A stretch of DNA of 64,000 nucleotides from Candidatus Limnocylindria bacterium (GTDB lineage: Bacteria > Chloroflexota > Limnocylindria > QHBO01). The position numbers and the translations under genes are program-made. Below are positions 1 to 61,877 of this stretch, piece after piece. Numbering within the stretch: the stretch's first letter is position 1; each line of letters starts with the position of its first letter. Location: contig DATAJO010000003.1 in NCBI GenBank assembly GCA_036262075.1, positions 15,464 to 79,463 on the forward strand, given 5' to 3'. The notes below the pieces were generated by a model, which was not told the DNA's origin, searched no databases, and was given only the letters and a program-made list of their open reading frames with translations.

Positions 1-1212
1 TGAGGAGCTCCATGAGCTGCTCGAAGGCCGCCTTCTCGCCGGCCAGGGTGATCTCGCCGCGGTGCTCGGGATCGAACGACCAGATCGGCGTGAACGTGTC
101 CTCGGTGTCGAGCAGGCCGAAGAGGTAGTCGATTCCGTCGTCGAAGGCGTAGGGGTCGCCCTCGAGGTCGAGGAACAGGTCGCCCTCGTTCGGCTCGGGC
201 AGCATGGCGAGCCCGCGCTCGCGCTCGATCGGCTCACCGGGCTTCGGCAGCAGGAGCTCGTGGATCGGCTTCGGAAGGCGGCGGCCGGCGACCTGGATCC
301 GGGCCTGCTCACGGATGCGCTCGACGCTCGCGGCGCTCGAGCCGTCGAGTGGGGGATCGAACGGCAGGGGCGCGTTGGCGAGCCGCACGACGGTGTCGAT
401 CTCGCGTGACGCCAGGGCCGTCCGTTGCCGGGCCGTGATGCCGGCCACGAGCGAGAGGTGGTCGTCCGCGCGCCGCCGATCGCGGCAGACGGCGGCCCAG
501 CGGCACACGTCGCAGTGCTCGACCGGCTCGGGATAGGTCGTCGACGGCGAGGCCGAACGCAGGCCGGCGGTCTCGGGATCGAGGACCGCGGCCTCGAAGC
601 GCGCCTTCGCCGCGCGATAGTAGGCGAGGAAGTCGTCGACGCGCAGGTGCGCCGTCTCGCGCGTGCTGCCGCCCAGGACGACGTGCATCTCACGGGGTCG
701 CACGCCCTGGATCCGCTCGAGCTGCTCGACGTACGAGCACATCTGGAGCACGGCGCCGGCCTTCACGTGGCGGGCGAGCTTCGTGTCGGCGACCTCGTAG
801 TGGTACGGGCCCCACGCCGATGGCCGCTCCGGGTCGTCGACGCGGAGAAGGAAGTCGGCGTAGCCGAGCCAGTGGCCGTCGAAGAACGTGGCCTGGTAGA
901 CGACGTCGGCACCGGCGGCCATGGCGTCGAGCGTCGCCTGCGCCTGGCGCCGGATCCGCTCGCCGCGCTCGGTGTCGTCGTCGCGCTCGATCTCGACCAC
1001 GCGACGGCCCGACGCGCGCAGCTCGTCCAGGTAGCGCGCCTCGTGGGCGAAGCCGCGCTTGCGAATGATCTCGAGCTCTCGATCGTTGTGCGCGGGGCGC
1101 TCCACCAGGCCCTGGAGCAGCGCCCGATCGAGCGCCGTGAGGTGCTCGCAGGCGAGGTAGCCGACGAGGTCGGTGGCGCTGAAGACCGGCTGACCGTCGA
1201 TCAGCTGCATCG
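1..1212 (-). CDS. RecB-family nuclease (TM0106-like, Cas4-like Cys cluster); 5' complete, 3' end runs off window
   Basis: Minus-strand ATG at 1212 (MQLIDGQPVFSATDLVGYLACEHL...), high GC3 throughout. C-x(n)-CxxC cluster HCDVCRWAAVC typical of the RecB/Cas4 nuclease Fe-S module. Absent from the ORF track only because there is no stop inside the window. Confidence 0.7.
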
Positions 1213-1281
1213 GCTACTCCTTCCCCGCATGCCGCCAGCCTACCGATCGGCGCGACAGCTCGGCTGTCGCGTGGCGCAGGC

Positions 1282-2094
1282 CTACGGGCGGGCGGATGGG
1301 GACGCGCTCGCGTCCGGGCTCACGGCGCGGCCGATGACGAGCGCCCAGTCGCAGTCCGACGTGACGGTGACGAAGGCCGAGCCGCGGACGCCGACCGCAG
1401 CGAACTGCTGGGGCTGGAGCGTCCCGCGATCGACGCCGGAGCCGACGGTCGCGCTGATCGCCCGCACCGGCTCACCGCCGGTCTCGGCCAGCGACACGCC
1501 GAACCGGCAGCCGGAGCGCTCGGGATCGGTTGCGATCCAGCGCACGAGATGATCGCCGCGGCCGATGTCGACCGGTCCCTCCTCGGCGTCGCCGAAGCCG
1601 GCCATGCCGTGCAGCCATGGCGAGTCCTCGACGCGCGTGCCCGACCCGCGCAGGAACGGCTCCGGCTCGAAGCCGGCGGCGATCCAGCCCTCCTCGAAGT
1701 CCGGCTCGCGGGGATCGACATCGGTCACGAGGTACCAGCCGAGGTCGCCCGCGATGAACGGTCCCATCACCACCTCGAGCTCCGCCCCGAGCGGGAGGAG
1801 GCCGGTGACCGTGGGCGAGTCGGTGCCGGGGCGTTGGCGGACCCGCATGCCGTCGATCCGGGTGAGGGCGAGCTCGCCGGCGGCCATGTTCGGGATGGCG
1901 CCGCGGTCCGGCGTGGGCATCGGCGTCGGGGTTGGCGAGGGCGTCGGCGGGGGAACGGTGACGATCGGGCTGGGCGTCGGGCTCGGCGACGGCCGGATCG
2001 TGGGCGTCGCCAGCGGTGGCAGCGTGCAGGCCGCGAGCACGAGCGCAGCGCCGACCGCGGCGGCGAACGTTCGGCCGGGTGCGCGCTGGGTCAT
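1282..2094 (-). CDS. hypothetical lipoprotein with Pro/Ser/Thr-rich linker
   Basis: Signal peptide plus lipobox-like LAAC, PSPSPTPSP linker, globular C-terminal domain of unknown function. Confidence 0.5.
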   Translation of the reverse strand: MTQRAPGRTFAAAVGAALVLAACTLPPLATPTIRPSPSPTPSPIVTVPPPTPSPTPTPMPTPDRGAIPNMAAGELALTRIDGMRVRQRPGTDSPTVTGLLPLGAELEVVMGPFIAGDLGWYLVTDVDPREPDFEEGWIAAGFEPEPFLRGSGTRVEDSPWLHGMAGFGDAEEGPVDIGRGDHLVRWIATDPERSGCRFGVSLAETGGEPVRAISATVGSGVDRGTLQPQQFAAVGVRGSAFVTVTSDCDWALVIGRAVSPDASASPSARP

Positions 2095-2122
2095 CGGCCC
2101 AGAGGGTAGCGCGCCGGAGACC

Positions 2123-3151
2123 CTAGCGGTCGAGCCGGGGGATCGATGAGGCGAGGAGGTCGGCGATCTCGCGGGCGTTCGTGGTGCCGTAGTTCGCGTA
2201 GCAGTTGTTCATGAGGACGTGCACCTCGGGCACCCGCCCGGCGACCTCCTGGATGCGCGGCACCCACTCGGACAGCTCGCCCTCGTCGTAGAGGTAGCGG
2301 AAGCGCTCGACGACCGGGATGCCCGACTTCTCCCACGTCTCGCTGCGCCGGCCGTGGAAGCGGATGACGGACAGCTTCGGGCTGCTCACCAGCGTGACCG
2401 GCGGCACCGACGACTTTGTGCCCGGCGGCGCGTCGACGATGACGTACGGGATCTGCTCGGACTCGAAGAAGCGGATCGTGCGCTCGCGGTTCTTCTCGTT
2501 GAACCAGCTGGCGTGGCGCAGCTCGACGGCGAACGGCGTGTCCCCGAGCCGCTCCCTGGCCGTGAGGATCTCCTCGCGCGACTCGCTGGTGGGGAAGAAC
2601 CAGCGCGGGTACTGGAGGAACACCGCGCCGAGCTTGCCCGACGAGCGGAGCGGCTCGATGCCGTCCAGGAACCGGTTCCAGATCTCGTCCTCGACGTCCT
2701 TCGGCAGGTCGCGAGCGTAGACGCGCTTCTGGTCGAGGATGTCGGGCGGCAGCGACTCGCGGATGTCCTTCGGCAGCCGCTTGGGCTCGGACGGCTGGCC
2801 GGTCATCAGCGCGTGGGCCTTGATGTCGAAGGTGAAGTCCGGCGGCGTGCGCTCGAGCCACAGCTCGCCCTGCCGACGGGCGGGGAGGGCGTAGTACGTC
2901 GCGTCGACCTCGACGATGGGGAACTGGTTGGCGTAGTGGACGAGCCGCTCCTCCGCCGTGTTCGCATCGGGCGGGTAGAAGACGCCCGGCGCGGTCATCG
3001 TCGGGTCGGTCCAGGACGCGGTGCCCAGGCGGATCGTCGATCCGTTCGTCCGGATCGGCTCGCGCGCAGCCTCGGCGTGGGCCTCGCCGCGCCTGCCCGC
3101 GACGTCGGGGCCGGGATCGTGCGGGTTCGTCGTCGTGGTCGTCGTCGGCAT
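2123..3151 (-). CDS. DUF72 family protein (YecE-like)
   Basis: 342 aa with motifs typical of DUF72 (IRLGTASWTD..FYPP.., YANQFPIVEVDATYY, LHASWF); recognised from memory of the family. Confidence 0.75.
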   Translation of the reverse strand: MPTTTTTTNPHDPGPDVAGRRGEAHAEAAREPIRTNGSTIRLGTASWTDPTMTAPGVFYPPDANTAEERLVHYANQFPIVEVDATYYALPARRQGELWLERTPPDFTFDIKAHALMTGQPSEPKRLPKDIRESLPPDILDQKRVYARDLPKDVEDEIWNRFLDGIEPLRSSGKLGAVFLQYPRWFFPTSESREEILTARERLGDTPFAVELRHASWFNEKNRERTIRFFESEQIPYVIVDAPPGTKSSVPPVTLVSSPKLSVIRFHGRRSETWEKSGIPVVERFRYLYDEGELSEWVPRIQEVAGRVPEVHVLMNNCYANYGTTNAREIADLLASSIPRLDR

Positions 3152-3218
3152 GCGACGAGCGTACTCGCCGATGTCGACAGGATCTGGCAGGAATGCCGGC
3201 CCCTGCCGGCTGATGCGG

Positions 3219-3686
3219 CTACTCCTGGCCGAGGGCGCGACGCACGCTGGGGAGGCAGAGGAGCAGCATCGCCAGGCTCGGGACCGCGAAGCCGATGAGG
3301 AAGGCGGGGTGCCAGGGCAGGGCGACGACCGCGATGGCGGTGCCGACGGCGACGAGCAGCTGCACGACGGCCGACGTGGTCCAGGACCACGCCCGGCGTC
3401 GCCGCACGCCCCGTGCGGCGATCGCGGCCGCGACGCCGAGCAGGAACGCGCCGGCGGCGGCGAATTGGAGGAGCGTCTCGGCCCGGGCGCCGCTCTCGCC
3501 GCCGAGGAAGGTGCGCTCGGCGACAGCCAGCAGGCTGAGCACGATGGCGAGCGCCACCGTGGCGAGCGCCTCGACGAGGAGGACGATGCGGACGGAACCG
3601 ATGGCGGCGTTGCGCGAGATCGGCGCAGCGGGGGTGTCGGTGGCCTGGATGGCGGTCGGCAGGGCGGTCATGGGCGGAGTCTCCAC
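3219..3686 (-). CDS. hypothetical integral membrane protein
   Basis: 155 aa, 4 predicted hydrophobic helices; no family recognised. Confidence 0.4.
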   Translation of the reverse strand: METPPMTALPTAIQATDTPAAPISRNAAIGSVRIVLLVEALATVALAIVLSLLAVAERTFLGGESGARAETLLQFAAAGAFLLGVAAAIAARGVRRRRAWSWTTSAVVQLLVAVGTAIAVVALPWHPAFLIGFAVPSLAMLLLCLPSVRRALGQE

Positions 3687-3800
3687 GCGACGCTCGGCTC
3701 GCGATACGGCGGATTGCCGCTGCGGAGCCTACGTCATTCGTCCACGGCCGCCTACCCCCGCGACGCGGGGCGGCACGTGGCGTGCTTCATCGGCGCCGGC

Positions 3801-4301
3801 ATGGGGCGCGTGACGCGGATGCCGCATCGCAGCATGGAGGATCGGTCACGGGCGCTGGCCGAGGTCGAGGCCATCGCCTGGCTGCTCGACAACAGCATCC
3901 CCGTGCCCGGCACCGGTGGGCGGCGCTTCGGGATCGACGCGATCATCGGACTCGTGCCGGTGGCGGGCGACCTCGTCAGCGGCGTCATCGGGCTGTACGT
4001 CGTGTGGCGCGGCGCCCGCCTGGGCGTGCCGCGCATCGTCGTGGCGCGCATGCTCGCGACATCGGCGCTCGACCTCGTCATCGGCGGCATCCCGTTCATC
4101 GGCGACGCGTTCGACCTGTGGTTCAAGGCGAACACCCGCAACCTCGCGCTGGTTCGGCGACACCTCGCCGATCCGGGCGCCTCGACGCGCGACGACTGGC
4201 TGATCGTCGGCGGGCTCGTGCTGGCCGTGGTGGCGGTGATCGTCCTGATCGGCTGGCTGCTCGTATCGCTCGTGACCGCGGTGGCCGGCGCGCTCAGCTG
4301 A
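3801..4301 (+). CDS. DUF4112-like membrane protein
   Basis: Internal ATG at 3801 of the 3021..4301 ORF; upstream part is Arg/Gly junk. Product has the GIDAIIGLVPVAGDLVSGVIGLYVV motif typical of DUF4112. Confidence 0.55.
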   Translation: MGRVTRMPHRSMEDRSRALAEVEAIAWLLDNSIPVPGTGGRRFGIDAIIGLVPVAGDLVSGVIGLYVVWRGARLGVPRIVVARMLATSALDLVIGGIPFIGDAFDLWFKANTRNLALVRRHLADPGASTRDDWLIVGGLVLAVVAVIVLIGWLLVSLVTAVAGALS

Positions 4302-4328
4302 TCCGGCGTTCTCGGCTGGCGGAGGGGG

Positions 4329-5321
4329 TCAGCCGACCGGAACGCGACCGACGTCGGCGTAGCGGGTCAGCGCCCGGCCCGCCAGCTCGTGGATCCGCGC
4401 TCGAATCCACTCCGGCTCGAGGATCTCGACCGCATCGCCCAGGGCGAGGAGGCGGCCCGGCACCTCGTCCGGCCAGTCGACCTCGAGGCGCAGCACGAGC
4501 CAGCCCTCCGGGTCGTCCGACGGGTCGCCGATGCGTCGCGCGTTATCGACCGCGCGGACGCCGACCAGGTCGGCCAGGAGGCCGATGCGGTACGGGTCGA
4601 CCCGCACGGTGATCTCGAGCCGCGGGGCGGACTCCTCGTAGGCGGCGATCGATGCCTGCCAGTGCTCGCCGAGGTCGAAGCCGGGCGGCCGGGTGAACGG
4701 CTGCTCGGTCGGCGTCACGCGGCTGAAGCGCGAGACGCGGTACGTGCGGATGTCGTCCTCGGCCGATGCGACGAGGTACCAGATCCCGGCCTTCAGGACG
4801 AGGCCGAGCGGATCGAGGATGCGGTTCACCTCGCCGCCGGCGCGGCGGTAGCCGACGGTGATGCGCTGCGCCTCCCACACGGCGTTGGCGATCGCGGCGA
4901 GGTGCGGGACCGATTCGCTCGACCGGAACCAGCCGGCCGCGTCGAGGTGGAAGCGCTCGACGAGGCGCTGGGCGCGGGCGCGCAGCTCGGCCGGCAGGGC
5001 GGCGAGGACCTTGAGTCGCGCGGCAGCGACGACCGTGCCGAGGCCGAGCTCGGCGGCCGGGCCGGGAAGGCCGGACAGGAACAGCGCCTCGGCCTCGGCG
5101 CCGGTGAGGCCGGTGAGACGGGTGCGGTATCCGTCGACGAGCTGGATGCCGCCGTGCGGTCCGCGCTCGGCGTAGATCGGCACGCCGGCGGCGCTCAGCG
5201 CCTCGACGTCGCGATGGATGGTCCGCTCGCTGACCTCGAGCTCGGCGGCGAGCATCGCGGCCGTCATGCGGCCACGCGCCTGGAGCAGGAGGAGGAGCTG
5301 GACGAGCCGAGAGGCACGCAT
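4329..5321 (-). CDS. WYL-domain transcriptional regulator (YafY/PafBC-like, HTH-WYL-WCX)
   Basis: N-terminal DeoR-like HTH (RLVQLLLLLQARGRMTAAMLAAELEVSERTIHRDVEAL), central WYL-type domain (RITVGYRRAGG..GIWYLV), C-terminal extension. Confidence 0.8.
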   Translation of the reverse strand: MRASRLVQLLLLLQARGRMTAAMLAAELEVSERTIHRDVEALSAAGVPIYAERGPHGGIQLVDGYRTRLTGLTGAEAEALFLSGLPGPAAELGLGTVVAAARLKVLAALPAELRARAQRLVERFHLDAAGWFRSSESVPHLAAIANAVWEAQRITVGYRRAGGEVNRILDPLGLVLKAGIWYLVASAEDDIRTYRVSRFSRVTPTEQPFTRPPGFDLGEHWQASIAAYEESAPRLEITVRVDPYRIGLLADLVGVRAVDNARRIGDPSDDPEGWLVLRLEVDWPDEVPGRLLALGDAVEILEPEWIRARIHELAGRALTRYADVGRVPVG

Positions 5322-5358
5322 CGGCGCCGATGATACGGCCGATACCTGCCAATTTCCG

Positions 5359-5883
5359 TCAGGTACGTTCCTCGATGAACCGGGCGACCTCGTCCATCGC
5401 CTCGTCGACGACCGCGTTCAGGCCGTGCCCGAGCCGCGGCCAGGTGCGGAGTCGGGCGTCGGGGAGCCGCTCGACCGCGGCGCGCAGCAGGTCGATGCGC
5501 GCGAACGGGTCGGATTCGCCGGACAGGAGCAGCACCGGGCAGGCGATGCCCGGGAAATGGGCGGTGCGCTCGTCCCAGGCCTCCTGCCGGCCCGGCGCGT
5601 GGAGCGGGAACGAGAGCAGCACCAGCGCCCGTGGCAGCTCCTCGGCGGCGAGCAGGGACGCCACGCGACCGCCGAACGAATGGCCACCGATGACCGACGT
5701 CGCCAGCTCGTCGCCGACGGCCTCGCGGTAGGCCGGCACGGCGCGCTCGGCCTTGCCGCGCGGCAGCGGGACGAGGTCGACGCTCAGCCCGCGTCGTGCC
5801 AGCGCGTTGGCGTACGGGCGGAGGCGCTCGATCGAGCCGGAGGCGCCGGGACCGAGGAAGACGTGGCTGGCGGGCATCGCCAC
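5359..5883 (-). CDS. alpha/beta-hydrolase fold protein (dienelactone-hydrolase-like)
   Basis: 174 aa, GHSFGG nucleophile elbow, C-terminal His (LGHGL). Confidence 0.6.
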
Positions 5884-5927
5884 AGAGCATAGTCGCGCCC
5901 GGCCGGGGATCGGCGTACGCTCAGGCC

Positions 5928-6356
5928 ATGACGCGAGAGAAGCTGACGAAGAGCGACGAGGAGTGGCGCGCCGAGCTCACCCCGGAGCAGTACCACGTGC
6001 TCCGCGAGGCGGGCACCGAGCGCGCGTTCACCGGCGCGTACTGGGACGAGCACCGGCCCGGCGTGTACCGATGCGCCGCCTGCGACGCGGTCCTGTTCGA
6101 GTCGGATACGAAGTTCGAGTCCGGCAGCGGCTGGCCGTCGTTCTTCGAGCCGGCCGAGTCCGATGCCGTCGAGCTCGTCGAGGACACCTCGTACGGCATG
6201 CGCCGGACCGAGGTCCGCTGCGCCCGCTGCGGCAGCCACCTGGGCCACCTGTTCGACGACGCGCACGACCAGCCCACCGGCCTGCGCTACTGCATCAACT
6301 CCGCGGCGCTCACGCTCGACCCGAAGGTGAAGCGAGAGCCGATCGAGCAGGTCTGA
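5928..6356 (+). CDS. msrB: peptide-methionine (R)-S-oxide reductase MsrB
   Basis: ATG at 5928 within the 5796..6356 ORF; two CxxC pairs (CAAC...CARC) and the GWPSF / RYCINS motifs of MsrB/SelR. Confidence 0.9.
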
Positions 6357-6365
6357 GCGGGACGG

Positions 6366-7421
6366 TCAACGGCCGTCCGCGACCGCCCGCATGACCTTCG
6401 CCGCCTCGCGGACGTCGTCGGCACCGACGTCGAGGTGGGTGACCGCGCGAATCGTGCGCGGTCCGAAGGCGTTGACCAGCACGCCCCGCTCCCGGCACGC
6501 GGCGACGAATCCGGGCGCATCAGGCACGCCGGTGCGCTCGACGAGGTCGAAGACGACGATGTTCGTCTGCACCGCATCGAGGTCGAGGACGACGTCGTCG
6601 CCGCGCAGCAGCTCGCGGGCGAGGAGCTTCGCGTTGTCGTGGTCCTCCGCCAGCCGCCCGACGTTGTTCGCGAGGGCGTAGCGGCCCGCCGCGGCGAGGA
6701 TCCCGGCCTGGCGCATCGCGCCGCCGGCCATGCGCCGGTACCGATGCGCCTGCTCGATGCGCTCGCGGCCGCCGGCGAGCATCGATCCGGCCGGCGCCCC
6801 GAGGCCCTTCGACAGCGACAACGACACGAGGTCGAATCCCGCCGCCAGCTCGCGCGCCGGACGGCCGGTCGCCACGGCCGCGTTGAGCAGCCGCGCGCCG
6901 TCGAGGTAGGTCGCCAGGCCGTGCTCGCGAGCGACGGCCACGGAGCGCGCCAGCGCATCGGCGGGGACGATCCGGCCGCCCGAGGTGTTGTGGGTGTTCT
7001 CGGCGACGAGCAGCGTGGTCGGGGGTGAGGCGATGTGCCCGCGCGGCGTGATGCCGGCCCGGACGTCATCGGCGTCGTACGTCCCGCGGCTGCCGATGGC
7101 CGTGAACTGCACGCCGGCGTTCGCGCCGCCGCCGCCGGTCTCGAAGCGCACGATATGCGCGCTGACCGGCACGAGCACGTCGTCGCCGGGGCGGGTGAGG
7201 GTCCGGAGCGCGACCTGGTTCGCCATCGTGCCGCTCGGCAGGAACAGCGCCGCCTCGGTGCCGAGCAGCTCCGCCACCTCGGCCTGGAGCGCGTTGACCG
7301 TCGGGTCCTCGCCGTACTGGTCGTCGCCGACCTCCGCCTCGGCGATGGCGCGGCGCATCTCCGGCGACGGCAGGGTGACGGTGTCGGATCGCAAGTCGAT
7401 CCGTCGGGCAAGCTGGCTCAC
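6366..7421 (-). CDS. ltaE: low-specificity L-threonine aldolase
   Basis: 351 aa PLP enzyme; DTVT, GTMANQ and SLSKGLGAP (PLP-lysine) motifs. Confidence 0.85.
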
Positions 7422-56902: not shown

Positions 56903-57772
56903 TCAGCCCTCGCCGATCTCGGTCAGCGGCAGGAGCGTTGCCGGTGGCGGATCGGTGCGGCGACGGAGCACGTTCGAGAGGAGCGATCGGCTGCGCGCGA
57001 CCTCGAGCTGGCGCTCGGCGAGGACCTGCTGCGCGGCGCAGTCGATGGCGTCGCACTCGCTGCCCCACCAGGCCAGGCGGCGCCGATGGATGGAGAGGTA
57101 GACATCGGCGTCCGAGCAGTCGTCGATGAGCTGGCCGATGGTGGCGCGCGCCTCGGCGATCGTCGGCAGGTAGTCGTTCGCGTACCAGTCGCGCGCGACG
57201 TCGGGCCACGGCCGGATGCGGCCGCCGGCCGCCTCCGCCATCTCGAACGCGTGGGCGCGGACCGCGGCGTACAGCTCGCCATAGGCGTCGATATCGGTCA
57301 GGGCGAAGCGGACCTCGGGGATCGCCTCACGGAAGCCGCTGTGGCGCCGAAACTCCGACTCGCGGGCGGTGCGGAGGATCACCTCCTCGTCGAGATCGGT
57401 GTCCACGGCGTACGGCGTCTGCGCGCGGCTGACCCGGGCATCGAGGAACTCGCGGCCCTCGCGGTGGGCCAGCGCGACGCGCTTGTGGCCGTCACGCACG
57501 AAGTAGGCGCGATCGACGCGCACGACGTCGATCGGCTCGTCGAGGCCGGACGGGGCGGCGTTGCGGATGTCGTCGAGCTGCTTGGCCAGGCGCGGGTGGA
57601 GGGGATGCCAGCACGCGTCGAAGTCGCGAGCGCGCTGGGCGCTGCCGATGATCTGCGCCACCGGGATCTCCTGCACGCCCTCGGGCACGGGCGATCCGAG
57701 CGCAAGCTGCCGGCTGATCCAGCCGAGCTCGTAGAGCGGGCCGCACTCGTGCGGCGTGCCGGGCAATCGCAT
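56903..57772 (-). CDS. ParB/sulfiredoxin-like nuclease-domain protein
   Basis: PVAQIIGSAQRARDFD...VVRVDRAYFVRDGHKRV matches the ParB N-terminal fold with a DGHHR-like motif; 289 aa. Confidence 0.55.
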   Translation of the reverse strand: MRLPGTPHECGPLYELGWISRQLALGSPVPEGVQEIPVAQIIGSAQRARDFDACWHPLHPRLAKQLDDIRNAAPSGLDEPIDVVRVDRAYFVRDGHKRVALAHREGREFLDARVSRAQTPYAVDTDLDEEVILRTARESEFRRHSGFREAIPEVRFALTDIDAYGELYAAVRAHAFEMAEAAGGRIRPWPDVARDWYANDYLPTIAEARATIGQLIDDCSDADVYLSIHRRRLAWWGSECDAIDCAAQQVLAERQLEVARSRSLLSNVLRRRTDPPPATLLPLTEIGEG

Positions 57773-57812
57773 GCCGGGACGATACGACCGTCGGCGCCGT
57801 CGGACCAGCGAC

Positions 57813-57957
57813 CTATGTCGCGTCCGGATGTCGGCGTCCCGTCGCCCGCACGAACTCGAGGAAGCCGATATCGCCGGGCGACACGCCGGCGCGGGTCAGC
57901 AGGACGGCCGCCTCGCTGAACTGCTGCAGGGCGTGGCTGTACAGGTGCATGACGTAG
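57813..57957 (-). pseudogene. short ORF with host-like codon usage (MHLYSHALQQFSEAAVLLTRAGVSPGDIGFLEFVRATGRRHPDAT); possible 3' remnant of a gene truncated by the adjacent insertion
   Basis: Excellent GC3, bounded upstream by an in-frame TAG at the edge of a CTAG-rich, lower-GC segment. Not in the ORF track (under 60 aa). Confidence 0.25.
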
Positions 57958-58096
57958 TGCCGCAGCGGCTAGTCAGGTACGCGCGCCGGCGACGCGACAT
58001 TCCGCCGTCCCGGCGTCCGTCGCAGCGCCGATGGCATGGATCGGCAGGCGTCGCATTGGAGGTCCGACGCCTAGCTGATCCCAGATGATCGCCTTG

Positions 58097-58121
58097 GGTC
58101 AAAGTTGACATTGGCGCAAGG
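58097..58121. repeat. 25-bp direct repeat, left copy GGGTCAAAGTTGACATTGGCGCAAG (contains palindrome GTCAA-ag-TTGAC)
   Basis: 22 of 25 identical to 58584..58608; the two copies bracket a small ORF with atypical codon usage. Confidence 0.8.
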
Positions 58122-58129
58122 CTATTGGG

Positions 58130-58510
58130 TCACTCGTAGAAGGCGCCGACCCGCAGGACTTCGAACGCGCGATCCCATGCCTCCGGCGGCAGCTGGACTC
58201 CCGAGCCCGCCCACTCGGCCAGCGCGTCTAGGTGCGACTGAAGATCAGCCTCGTCGCCGTCCCGCTCCGGAAGCAGAACCTGCCACGTCCCGAGAAGCTC
58301 CTGATCTAGCGGCATGCTTGAGCCGGCGCGGTAGCTGTGACTGGCGTTGACCCACCCCGTAAGGGTCCAATTGCGCCACCAGTCGCCTCGCTGCTCTTCC
58401 CAGGCTGCATAGTCCGGCTCCGGCAGTGCAAGGGCTGCGTCGAGCGATGCCCGAAGCTGGCGGACAGCTTGGGCGAACTCGTCCGCCGAGGACAGGTGTT
58501 TTGGCTCCAT
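58130..58510 (-). CDS. small acidic Trp-rich hypothetical protein (126 aa) with atypical lower GC3 codon usage; probably horizontally acquired
   Basis: ATG 58510 inside the 58130..58705 ORF. Codons such as cca, aaa, caa, gct, ctt, gca, tat, gaa, aat and cta are frequent, unlike neighbouring genes. Six CTAG tetramers lie within ~0.7 kb versus ~5 in the remaining 63 kb. Confidence 0.45.
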   Translation of the reverse strand: MEPKHLSSADEFAQAVRQLRASLDAALALPEPDYAAWEEQRGDWWRNWTLTGWVNASHSYRAGSSMPLDQELLGTWQVLLPERDGDEADLQSHLDALAEWAGSGVQLPPEAWDRAFEVLRVGAFYE

Positions 58511-58583
58511 GAGCAAATCATGCACATGCGAGCGGTCAGTCGCAGGCTGGCGGAGAGCCGGGCGGCGCCGTGTCGCCAAGCGT

Positions 58584-58608
58584 GGGTCGAACTTGACAGT
58601 GGCGCAAG
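58584..58608. repeat. 25-bp direct repeat, right copy GGGTCGAACTTGACAGTGGCGCAAG
   Basis: See 58097..58121. Confidence 0.8.
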
Positions 58609-58617
58609 CGAACCTAG

Positions 58618-59556
58618 TCAACCGAGTCGCCGCGTCCGGAGTCCGGACCGGTCCTCCAGGTACAGCCGTGGCACTCCAACGAGCGCGGCCAGCCGCGCGA
58701 GCCACATCGTCGGTACCGCGACGACGAGCGCAGCGAACGCAAGCCAGCCCCAGCGTTGCCTCGTTGCGATCGTCATGAGCACACCCGCGATCGCCAGTCG
58801 GAGGAGGAAGTCACCCAGCGTCGACGGCACCAGGAAGAGCAGCTGGTCACCGATATATGGAGCGTCATTCGTGCTGGCTCCCTGTTGCAGCATGGCGGCG
58901 ACGAAGGCTCCCCACGATTCCGGGTCGAGGCTGACGTGTGCGGCCACCGCCACTGATGCGGCGACGGTCCCGAGGATGATCGGGCGGCGCGCGGCGGGGG
59001 TCGCGATCCACAGGTACCCGATGAGCAAGGCGCTGCCGTACTTGACGAACGACTGCGCCGCGAGAGCGGCAGCGCCGGCGCCTCGCAGTGCCCACCGCGC
59101 GCCGGCGGCCAGCGGAAGGGTCAGGTTGAGGCTCCACAGCTCGATGAGCAGCGGCGGGAACAGGAGCGCCCACCCCACTGCCTTCCACGATCCGACGAGG
59201 TAGCGCACGCAGAGCAGGCAGGCGGCTCGGTACAGCCACGTCAACATGGACTCCGGAAGGACGGTGAACGGCGCAACCAGCGCCGCGAACGTGGGCAGGT
59301 ACCGATATGCCCCCGGGTCGTTGATCTCCACTGCCGTGTAGAGCGGCTCTCCCGCGAGGTACCGCTGGCCGGCGAGGTAGTAGGCGTTGAAGTCGTACGC
59401 CCATCCGCCGTCGCGGCGGAGGCCGTCCATGAACGAAAGCGCGGCGATCGCGAATCCCGCGGCTGCCGCAACGTACCCGGCCACGAGGAGCGCTGTCCGC
59501 ACGCTCGGCACCTGAACGAGCCGGGCGAAGCCGCGCTCGGCGGACTCGGTGGTCAC
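58618..59556 (-). CDS. DUF2029 / GT87-like integral membrane protein (mannosyltransferase-like)
   Basis: 312 aa, multiple TM helices; resembles actinobacterial alpha-1,2-mannosyltransferase-family membrane proteins but appears short. Confidence 0.6.
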   Translation of the reverse strand: MTTESAERGFARLVQVPSVRTALLVAGYVAAAAGFAIAALSFMDGLRRDGGWAYDFNAYYLAGQRYLAGEPLYTAVEINDPGAYRYLPTFAALVAPFTVLPESMLTWLYRAACLLCVRYLVGSWKAVGWALLFPPLLIELWSLNLTLPLAAGARWALRGAGAAALAAQSFVKYGSALLIGYLWIATPAARRPIILGTVAASVAVAAHVSLDPESWGAFVAAMLQQGASTNDAPYIGDQLLFLVPSTLGDFLLRLAIAGVLMTIATRQRWGWLAFAALVVAVPTMWLARLAALVGVPRLYLEDRSGLRTRRLG

Positions 59557-59684
59557 GAGGGGAATCTACGCCCTGTGGGCGCGACGCCGAGCGGATCGTC
59601 GGCGCCGCGCGCGCCGATCCGCCGACCTTCGATGGCCGGCTCCGCGGAGAGGGTCAACCGTGACCGGGGCTCGAGCGCCACCGG

Positions 59685-61265
<1,581 letters not shown>

Positions 61266-61406: not shown

Positions 61407-61877
61407 TCAGGCGCCGAAGCGCATGAGGATCATGCAGGTGAAGACGATGAAGAACAGGCCGAGGTCGATCCTCGAGATGCGGCGCAGCCGCGCCACGCTC
61501 GCGCCGTAGTCGGGCGTGTCCTTCAGGCCCTCGAAGATCGGGCCGATGTACCGGGCGCCGGTGTAGAACAGCGCGACCGTGGTCAGCAGGGCCACGACCC
61601 AGGTGATGCCGTAGGCGGTGCCGAAGACGTCCGCGAACGCGTCGATCGGCCCGAACAGCGTGCCGCGAATGATGCCGAGCGCGAGGACCGCGAGGCCGAC
61701 GAACGGGAAGACCTTCGCGCCGATCTCACCCAGCCGCGCGTTCGTGATCCGACCCTGGGCTTCGGGCAGCTCCAAGAGGGCCGGGGTGACGAGGAAGTAC
61801 ATCGCCAGCGCGTAGCCGAACCACAGGATGCCGAGCAGGACGTGCAGCCATTGCACAGCGAACTGAGCCCAGTCCAT
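61407..61877 (-). CDS. hypothetical integral membrane protein
   Basis: 156 aa, 4 TM helices, good GC3. Confidence 0.5.
   Translation of the reverse strand: MDWAQFAVQWLHVLLGILWFGYALAMYFLVTPALLELPEAQGRITNARLGEIGAKVFPFVGLAVLALGIIRGTLFGPIDAFADVFGTAYGITWVVALLTTVALFYTGARYIGPIFEGLKDTPDYGASVARLRRISRIDLGLFFIVFTCMILMRFGA

Follow-up and report, generated by a model that had tools for sequence, protein, structure and literature searches.

A probable strain-specific accessory islet next to malate synthase in a Candidatus Limnocylindria genome, with a stop-codon-anchored element as a candidate gene junction

We analysed a 64,000-nucleotide window (the whole stretch of DNA studied; 72% G+C) of a 108,695-bp contig from a metagenome-assembled genome (MAG) of Candidatus Limnocylindria, phylum Chloroflexota (locus tags VHR55_00770 to _00785). 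On its minus strand the genes run in the order malate synthase, mem312, orf126, a 45-codon open reading frame (ORF) and p289, and the window holds a foreign segment of about 1.7 kb (57971-59684) that includes mem312 as well as orf126. The region is best explained as a strain-specific accessory islet in a hypervariable slot between malate synthase and p289, a core gene with a ParB/sulfiredoxin (Srx) fold. While such an islet is an ordinary kind of event, the 26-nt junction element anchored to stop codons within it is unusual and possibly new. We propose that two foreign genes were captured at an element adjacent to malate synthase, in a manner like that of integrons or rAID clusters, and that a deletion into a DinB-family gene followed; taken as a whole, this account seems to us evenly balanced between right and wrong. 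The features on which the argument depends are as follows.

59685-61265, minus strand: malate synthase gene, which bounds the variable slot on one side as a conserved anchor (80-87% amino-acid identity, same position in 14 related loci)
59650-59675, minus strand: c3, a diverged copy of the element, CTCGAGCCCCGGTCACGGTTGACCCT on the coding strand, 9 nt past the malate synthase TGA
58618-59556, minus strand: mem312, a 312-aa multi-pass membrane protein, accessory, without a homolog in 46 related loci
58583-58608, minus strand: c2, a copy of the element, CTTGCGCCACTGTCAAGTTCGACCCA, 9 nt past the mem312 TGA
58511-58582, minus strand: a 72-nt leader between c2 and the start of orf126, its translation conserved in P0147
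58130-58510, minus strand: orf126, an acidic, Trp-rich, all-helical 126-aa protein, apparently a divergent DUF7660 member
58095-58120, minus strand: c1, a copy of the element, CTTGCGCCAATGTCAACTTTGACCCA, 9 nt past the orf126 TGA
57971-58094, minus strand: a 124-nt stretch between c1 and the breakpoint
57813-57970, minus strand: 3' remnant of a DinB-family gene, about the last 50 codons plus the stop, identified by homology to intact genes
56903-57772, minus strand: p289, a 289-aa lineage-core gene with an N-terminal ParB/Srx-fold domain, the other anchor of the slot

The window was compared with 46 related loci (L-numbered). Across these loci the order of malate synthase, p289, an M1 peptidase gene, a 315-aa gene and MurJ is kept. 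The interval between malate synthase and p289 differs in gene content in every relative and holds, in mixed orientation, genes for a methyltransferase, a hydrolase, a glyoxalase, DinB, a globin, a lipoprotein and a GNAT acetyltransferase. No homolog of mem312 or orf126 was found in the 46 loci, the leaders upstream of these two genes have no relatives there, and the 124-nt piece at 57971-58094 resembles nothing in those loci or elsewhere in the window. Because the relatives carry other genes in the interval, we conclude that the window strain swapped its native slot content for the 1.7-kb segment, which is a replacement and not a simple insertion. Acquisition together with replacement of the native genes is, in our judgement, highly probable.

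The first-pass annotation of this DNA had proposed that a cassette of about 0.7 kb, bounded by two repeats, was horizontally acquired and inserted here. Horizontal, strain-specific acquisition holds up, as both genes are absent from the related loci while the flanks are syntenic, and the same segment was not present in any of these relatives, where the slot holds other genes. The proposed extent and mode of the event do not: the foreign block measures about 1.7 kb, the repeats lie inside it, its left breakpoint at 57971 is 124 bp past the left repeat, and native genes were replaced.

The left edge of the segment falls within a gene. The 45-codon ORF at 57813-57950, with a G+C content at third codon positions (GC3) of 0.89, had been interpreted as the 3' remnant of a disrupted gene starting right after an in-frame TAG. 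The TAG is present at 57969-57971, in frame ahead of the ORF, and the gene can now be named as a member of the DinB family that is intact in L052. When translated beyond its ATG to the TAG, the remnant is 75-91% identical in amino acids to the C-termini of intact 167-aa genes in eight related loci (L002-L016), of which the L002 copy carries a Pfam DinB domain; homology of the 45-codon ORF to the DinB family (PF05163/PF12867) extends over the part retained. L052 is a sister strain, with a p289 identity of 96% at the protein level and 97% at the DNA level; there, 131 or more codons of the DinB-family gene lie upstream of p289 across the same 40-nt gap. An ungapped DNA comparison of the window with L052 gives 191 identities in 200 positions (95.5%) over 57772-57971 and about 25-30%, the chance level, beyond. 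L052 has CAG where the window has TAG at 57969-57971, and the TAG arises at the junction. The drop in identity to L052 at 57971 locates the breakpoint to within about 2 bp.

The source is a metagenome-assembled genome, and the arrangement could in part be an assembly artefact, with a chimeric join at the repeats or at the DinB junction. An independent Logan contig that duplicates the window, L001, reproduces the three element copies and both genes exactly, and two further assemblies, P0146 and P0147, also carry the unit formed by c2, the leader and orf126. L001 confirms malate synthase, mem312, orf126 and c1 but stops at window position 58066, short of the DinB junction. That junction is 124 bp from the nearest repeat, however, and has no repeat in common with DinB. 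We regard a chimeric assembly as improbable.

The composition of the segment is also atypical. G+C at the first, second and third codon positions of orf126 is 0.75, 0.49 and 0.76, a coding pattern in which the third value lies below the 0.85-0.95 of the neighbouring genes, and 20% of its codons are rare (used fewer than 3 times per 1000 in eight reference genes), compared to 1.2-4.5% in the reference genes themselves. The aberrant codon usage first noticed in orf126 is therefore borne out, but orf126 is not the sole outlier among its neighbours, as mem312 (GC3 0.85) has 11% rare codons. The tetramer CTAG occurs 11 times in the window, five times in this region (57969, 58071, 58228, 58306 and 58614) and six times in the remaining 63 kb. 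Of the TA dinucleotides within 57960-58625, five of 11 belong to a CTAG, as against six of 554 elsewhere, and the probability that any 666-bp stretch would hold five of 11 uniformly placed sites is 2.5e-5. The CTAG clustering described in the first-pass annotation is thus real, while its counts (six in the segment and about five elsewhere) need correction. The 7-mer TGACTAG, read on the minus strand, is found at just two places in the window, the mem312 stop (58614-58620) and the DinB junction (57969-57975); in all the fetched loci other than L001 there are likewise only two instances, and by dinucleotide shuffles it is not significant.

The second line of evidence concerns the 26-nt element, for which copies and distances to stop codons are all read on the coding strand. 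Copies c1 and c2 are identical at 23 of 26 positions, a match that no shuffle of the window produced, and c3 is identical to c1 at 17 of 26. The spacing to the preceding TGA is constant at 9 nt in all three, while the nine nucleotides themselves differ. Two 25-bp direct repeats with 22 of 25 identities had been reported here, the left one containing a palindrome; both the identity and the palindrome (GTCAA-AG-TTGAC, in c1) are confirmed, as is the right copy at 58584-58608, and the left copy shifts by one base to 58096-58120. Only two copies had been recognised, and the third, c3, follows malate synthase.

The element is also found after the malate synthase stop codon in L003 (9 nt), L008 (8 nt) and L026 (9 nt), where it matches c2 at 21 of 26, 18 of 26 and 15 of the first 18 positions, respectively. 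Weaker traces are seen in L004 and L006, and the element is absent in eight other relatives. No further copies were found elsewhere in the window or in the related loci examined, which amount to about 750 kb. In related species the element is native to the malate synthase 3' flank. A selenocysteine or other recoding signal after the TGA was considered and rejected, since homologs of malate synthase and of the orf126 family end at these stops.

The presence of copies where nothing is inserted bears on the earlier idea that the repeats are the ends of an insertion or a target-site duplication. A single ORF between direct repeats would suit a transposon carrying orf126; however, a 26-bp duplication with three mismatches is atypical, and the segment has neither terminal inverted repeats nor a transposase. 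The third copy, and the orthologous copies of other species (L003, L008 and L026) at sites with no insert, rule this explanation out for practical purposes, and we give it hardly any credence.

The main rival explanation is that the element is a 3'-end hairpin, either a factor-independent terminator or an mRNA-stabilising stem-loop, that moved with the foreign genes by ordinary homologous or illegitimate recombination and has no role in mobility. In its favour, all copies lie 8-9 nt past a stop codon on the coding strand, and relatives have the element after malate synthase without any cassette behind it. Furthermore, some copies fold. Together with two flanking bases, c1 is an 11-6-11 imperfect palindrome; a 14-bp hairpin forms in the L003 copy (z -4.3), the hairpin of c1 is less stable (z -2.5), and two base pairs differ on both sides between the two copies. 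The hairpins of c2, L008 and L026, however, are no more stable than shuffles. The element lacks a U-tract, and a consensus scan returned neither an intrinsic-terminator-like nor a promoter-like (sigma-70) site. A generic 3' element would be expected after many genes, whereas in about 800 kb this one was seen behind malate synthase and the two foreign genes and nowhere else. A hairpin would also leave unexplained why atypical foreign genes bear an element native to the recipient's malate synthase flank and why the homology to P0147, described below, ends at the element edge. We consider the hairpin explanation unlikely, though it deserves more weight than an assembly chimera, operators or a target-site duplication. 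An Rfam search of L001 and of two contigs described below, L050 and L051, gave no match.

Alternatively, the repeats could be operators through which a transcription factor controls malate synthase and the genes downstream of it, and operators for a co-acquired regulator had been suggested at the outset. A partial dyad, GTCA-N4-TGAC, is present in c1 and c3, and, on the coding strand, mem312, orf126 and the DinB remnant each have a copy ahead of them. The segment, however, encodes no regulator or other DNA-binding protein, and the scan found no promoter-like site. What comes after the element in relatives is either genes on the other strand or long stretches of non-coding DNA. Moreover, the distance that is constant is the one to the upstream stop, while the next starts lie at 93 and 72 nt. 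An operator function is very improbable.

Further evidence, here for movement of the orf126 unit, comes from relatives of the protein in other contexts. P0147, a protein from another assembly that falls in the same 90% identity cluster as orf126, corresponds to orf126 translated together with the sequence upstream of it. It agrees with the translated window across the leader and c2, and the similarity is lost within 3 nt of the 5' edge of c2. The unit of c2, leader and orf126 is thus carried by the assemblies of P0146 and P0147 as well as by the window. P0001, an 86%-identical homolog of orf126, sits between two oppositely oriented genes.

Searching metagenomes with the orf126 protein alone returned only L050, a 3.4-kb contig (1-3388). 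A different 26-nt element, GTGACATTnnCCnACGCTGACTGAGC, recurs there in seven copies at spacings of 397-589 bp, separating small ORFs of one orientation. A remnant of an orf126-family gene, 24 codons long, occupies one of the intervals and includes 37 nt with 95% DNA identity to orf126, and the ORF at 489-941 gives a sub-threshold hit to CdiI (E 0.01). Several of the L050 ORFs have lipoprotein-type signal peptides, and the TGA within the GTGACATTnnCCnACGCTGACTGAGC element is often the stop codon of an ORF. Similarly, L051 holds a full-length family gene with an element of the L050 type on both sides, the downstream copy again 9 nt past the TGA. Tandem repeats of 9 nt (GGGCGTGAC and GGTGTTGCG) flank the family gene in L049. 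A 47-nt repeat, 91% identical, also precedes two neighbouring genes in L049; the coordinates recorded for the 9-nt and 47-nt repeats are 1479-1517, 1940-1986 and 2743-2790, and additionally 427-473 and 1038-1084. Other family members lie among small ORFs: the P0140 contig has five that are co-directional, the P0136 contig has small ORFs and an AAA_25 gene, and in the P0134 contig an Imm27 gene ends 28 nt upstream of the family gene. When viral contigs were scanned with both element patterns, that of the window and that of L050, they gave single hits at chance level or none.

The protein itself had been described as acidic and Trp-rich, and it is so, with an isoelectric point of 4.4, eight Trp residues and 22 Asp plus Glu against nine Lys plus Arg. 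An exhaustive HMMER search of 1.84 billion representative proteins yielded only about nine true relatives. Four of nine aligned family members match DUF7660 (Pfam PF24693), the best at E 1.6e-7, and precomputed PF24693 hits exist for P0127, P0134 and P0136-P0138, some of them flagged as faint. A search of orf126 itself against PF24693 gave no hit at E values up to 10. We therefore describe orf126 as a putative divergent DUF7660 member, a link that runs only through its relatives. It had no PADLOC, PHROG or PDB matches. The public annotation of the MAG contains only a 61-aa product from an internal Met (HEX2765163.1), while the family alignment supports 126 aa. We infer a function for orf126 from gene neighbourhoods only, and on these it is probably an orphan immunity-type protein or another small protective protein. 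The earlier suggestion of an immunity-like gene was thus a fair guess, given DUF7660 relatives in small-ORF arrays and one of them 28 nt from an Imm27 gene, and it shares this basis in neighbourhoods.

The second foreign gene, mem312, is alone in its 90% identity cluster. It has no Pfam hit (E up to 1), no NCBIfam match and no PDB sequence match, and the GT87 label previously given to it finds no backing in these sequence comparisons, the GT87/DUF2029 profile included.

Cassette capture at a fixed site would account for the arrangement: the pattern of a gene followed by the element repeats, the element is native to the malate synthase flank, homology stops at the element edge, and relatives occur in arrays punctuated by repeats. 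In the history that we propose, mem312 and orf126 would each have been a cassette that entered separately, through site-specific recombination at the element adjacent to malate synthase, every arrival leaving one copy of the element at its junction. The recombinase would be encoded elsewhere in the genome, and capture may be likened to that at an integron attI site or to Xer-dependent integration at dif. A later deletion by illegitimate recombination would have created the in-frame TAG, with one end point 124 bp past the last copy of the element and the other near codon 119 of the DinB-family gene. We infer both the order of these events and recombination at the element, and we place the latter somewhat short of even. 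In line with the first-pass view, the repeats probably mark cassette junctions.

Several known systems resemble the locus. An integron cassette ends at its 3' side in an attC site of about 55-141 nt with R'' and R' cores (RYYYAAC ... GTTRRRY), and clusters of attC sites without an integrase are known as CALINs. Like integron arrays and CALINs, the locus consists of small ORFs that share one orientation, mostly lack promoters and have an atypical composition, with a short and partly palindromic site behind each; it would have grown at one fixed chromosomal position, and its cassettes occur in other contexts elsewhere. Unlike attC sites, the copies here are similar in sequence rather than only in structure. 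Neither IntI nor attI was found near the array, where the flanking genes are conserved, syntenic housekeeping genes, with the more distant ORFs of the window only partly scanned.

The rAID-1 clusters described in Bacteroidales by Ross et al., and called integron-like by their authors, are arrays of orphan immunity genes with skewed G+C content, a XerD-like recombinase and repetitive intergenic sequences; their definition requires a XerD-like recombinase gene at the 5' end and, after it, two or more co-directional low-G+C genes (bioRxiv 10.1101/471110). The likeness would lie in the skewed G+C content, the repetitive intergenic sequences and putative orphan immunity-type genes, with one orf126 relative adjoining an Imm27 gene; two co-directional genes of lowered GC3 are present. 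However, malate synthase and no recombinase stands upstream, and whereas rAID-1 belongs to low-G+C Bacteroidales, the locus lies in another phylum, comprises two genes only and has a putative immunity role.

In Xer-dependent integration, as with integrative mobile elements exploiting Xer (IMEX) at dif, the site is duplicated, its copies flank successive inserts, and no recombinase encoded by the element is needed. The element shares with dif an imperfect palindrome of about 28 bp in an 11-6-11 layout, clearest in c1. It differs in being present in three copies where dif is a single-copy site, and there is no GC-skew switch at the locus. The chromosomal dif site or terminus was considered and rejected for lack of that switch, for the poor agreement in sequence with dif and because many relatives have no copy of the element at the orthologous position. 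The pdif sites of pdif modules are inverted, whereas the copies here are direct. Finally, repetitive extragenic palindromic (REP) sequences and bacterial interspersed mosaic elements (BIME) are likewise short imperfect palindromes just past stop codons, but REPs number tens to hundreds per genome, and the present element was found at this locus only in the approximately 800 kb examined. On this comparison, the locus does not qualify as an integron, a rAID-1 cluster or a dif site, and its relation to them would be one of resemblance only.

A number of observations weigh against recombination at the element. No recombinase was found in the conserved neighbourhood, and none is linked to the element. 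At 26-28 nt the element is shorter than attC, and a direct reading of c1-c3 and their flanks shows neither the RYYYAAC nor the GTTRRRY core. It matches the E. coli XerC arm at six of 11 positions and has only the 8-mer TGTCAAGT in common with the XerD arm of Frankia dif, as given in PMC3025954. The shuffle-level stability of the c2, L008 and L026 hairpins counts here as well. Copy c3, the supposed landing site, resembles the copies of other species less than c1 and c2 do. The L050 and L051 element belongs to a different sequence family that is absent from the window, and there are only two cassettes here, in a single MAG. The immunity reading of orf126, in turn, draws on a single neighbouring Imm27 gene and a single CdiI hit below threshold (E 0.01).

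Other genes around the slot complete the picture. The malate synthase ortholog in the P0007 contig carries the Pfam domains MS_N, MS_TIM-barrel and MS_C. In L002 (4949-6414), a long-read MAG, the ortholog is split into three frames, which is probably the result of assembly indel errors rather than a pseudogene. The gene next to the segment had been called ParB-like, and a ParB/Srx fold with a DGHHR-like motif was indeed found in p289. Its orthologs (L002-L017) have variable accessory genes on both sides, with DinB upstream in some genomes and downstream in others. A 156-aa membrane protein gene (window 61407-61877) lies between malate synthase and an OmdA-like gene and occurs only in some relatives (L005, L008, L026 and partly L014), a further presence/absence difference near the locus. 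At the other end of the window (1-7000), several ORFs have GC3 values of 0.73-0.80, as low as that of orf126 (for instance 3846-4328, minus strand, and 6357-7028, plus strand); they are possibly shadow ORFs, or else mark a second region of atypical composition.

Whether or not the element is a recombination site, the locus provides a clean, dated gene replacement, with the DinB-family gene intact in L052 and a junction placed to about 2 bp. More speculatively, the locus may belong to an undescribed integron-like system in soil Chloroflexota and in the organisms of L050 and L051, with sites of about 26-28 nt directly after stop codons and the recombinase encoded elsewhere. The malate synthase 3' flank of Limnocylindria would then be a landing pad, and the cargo would include small acidic orphan immunity factors of the DUF7660 type. 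We offer this broader proposal tentatively, as doubtful but worth stating. If the element is a recombination site, the locus would represent compact gene-cassette capture, distal to its integrase, in an abundant uncultured soil lineage. The seven-cassette array of L050 would then be a sister system, the known range of integron-like machinery would be widened, and DUF7660 would gain its first functional context.

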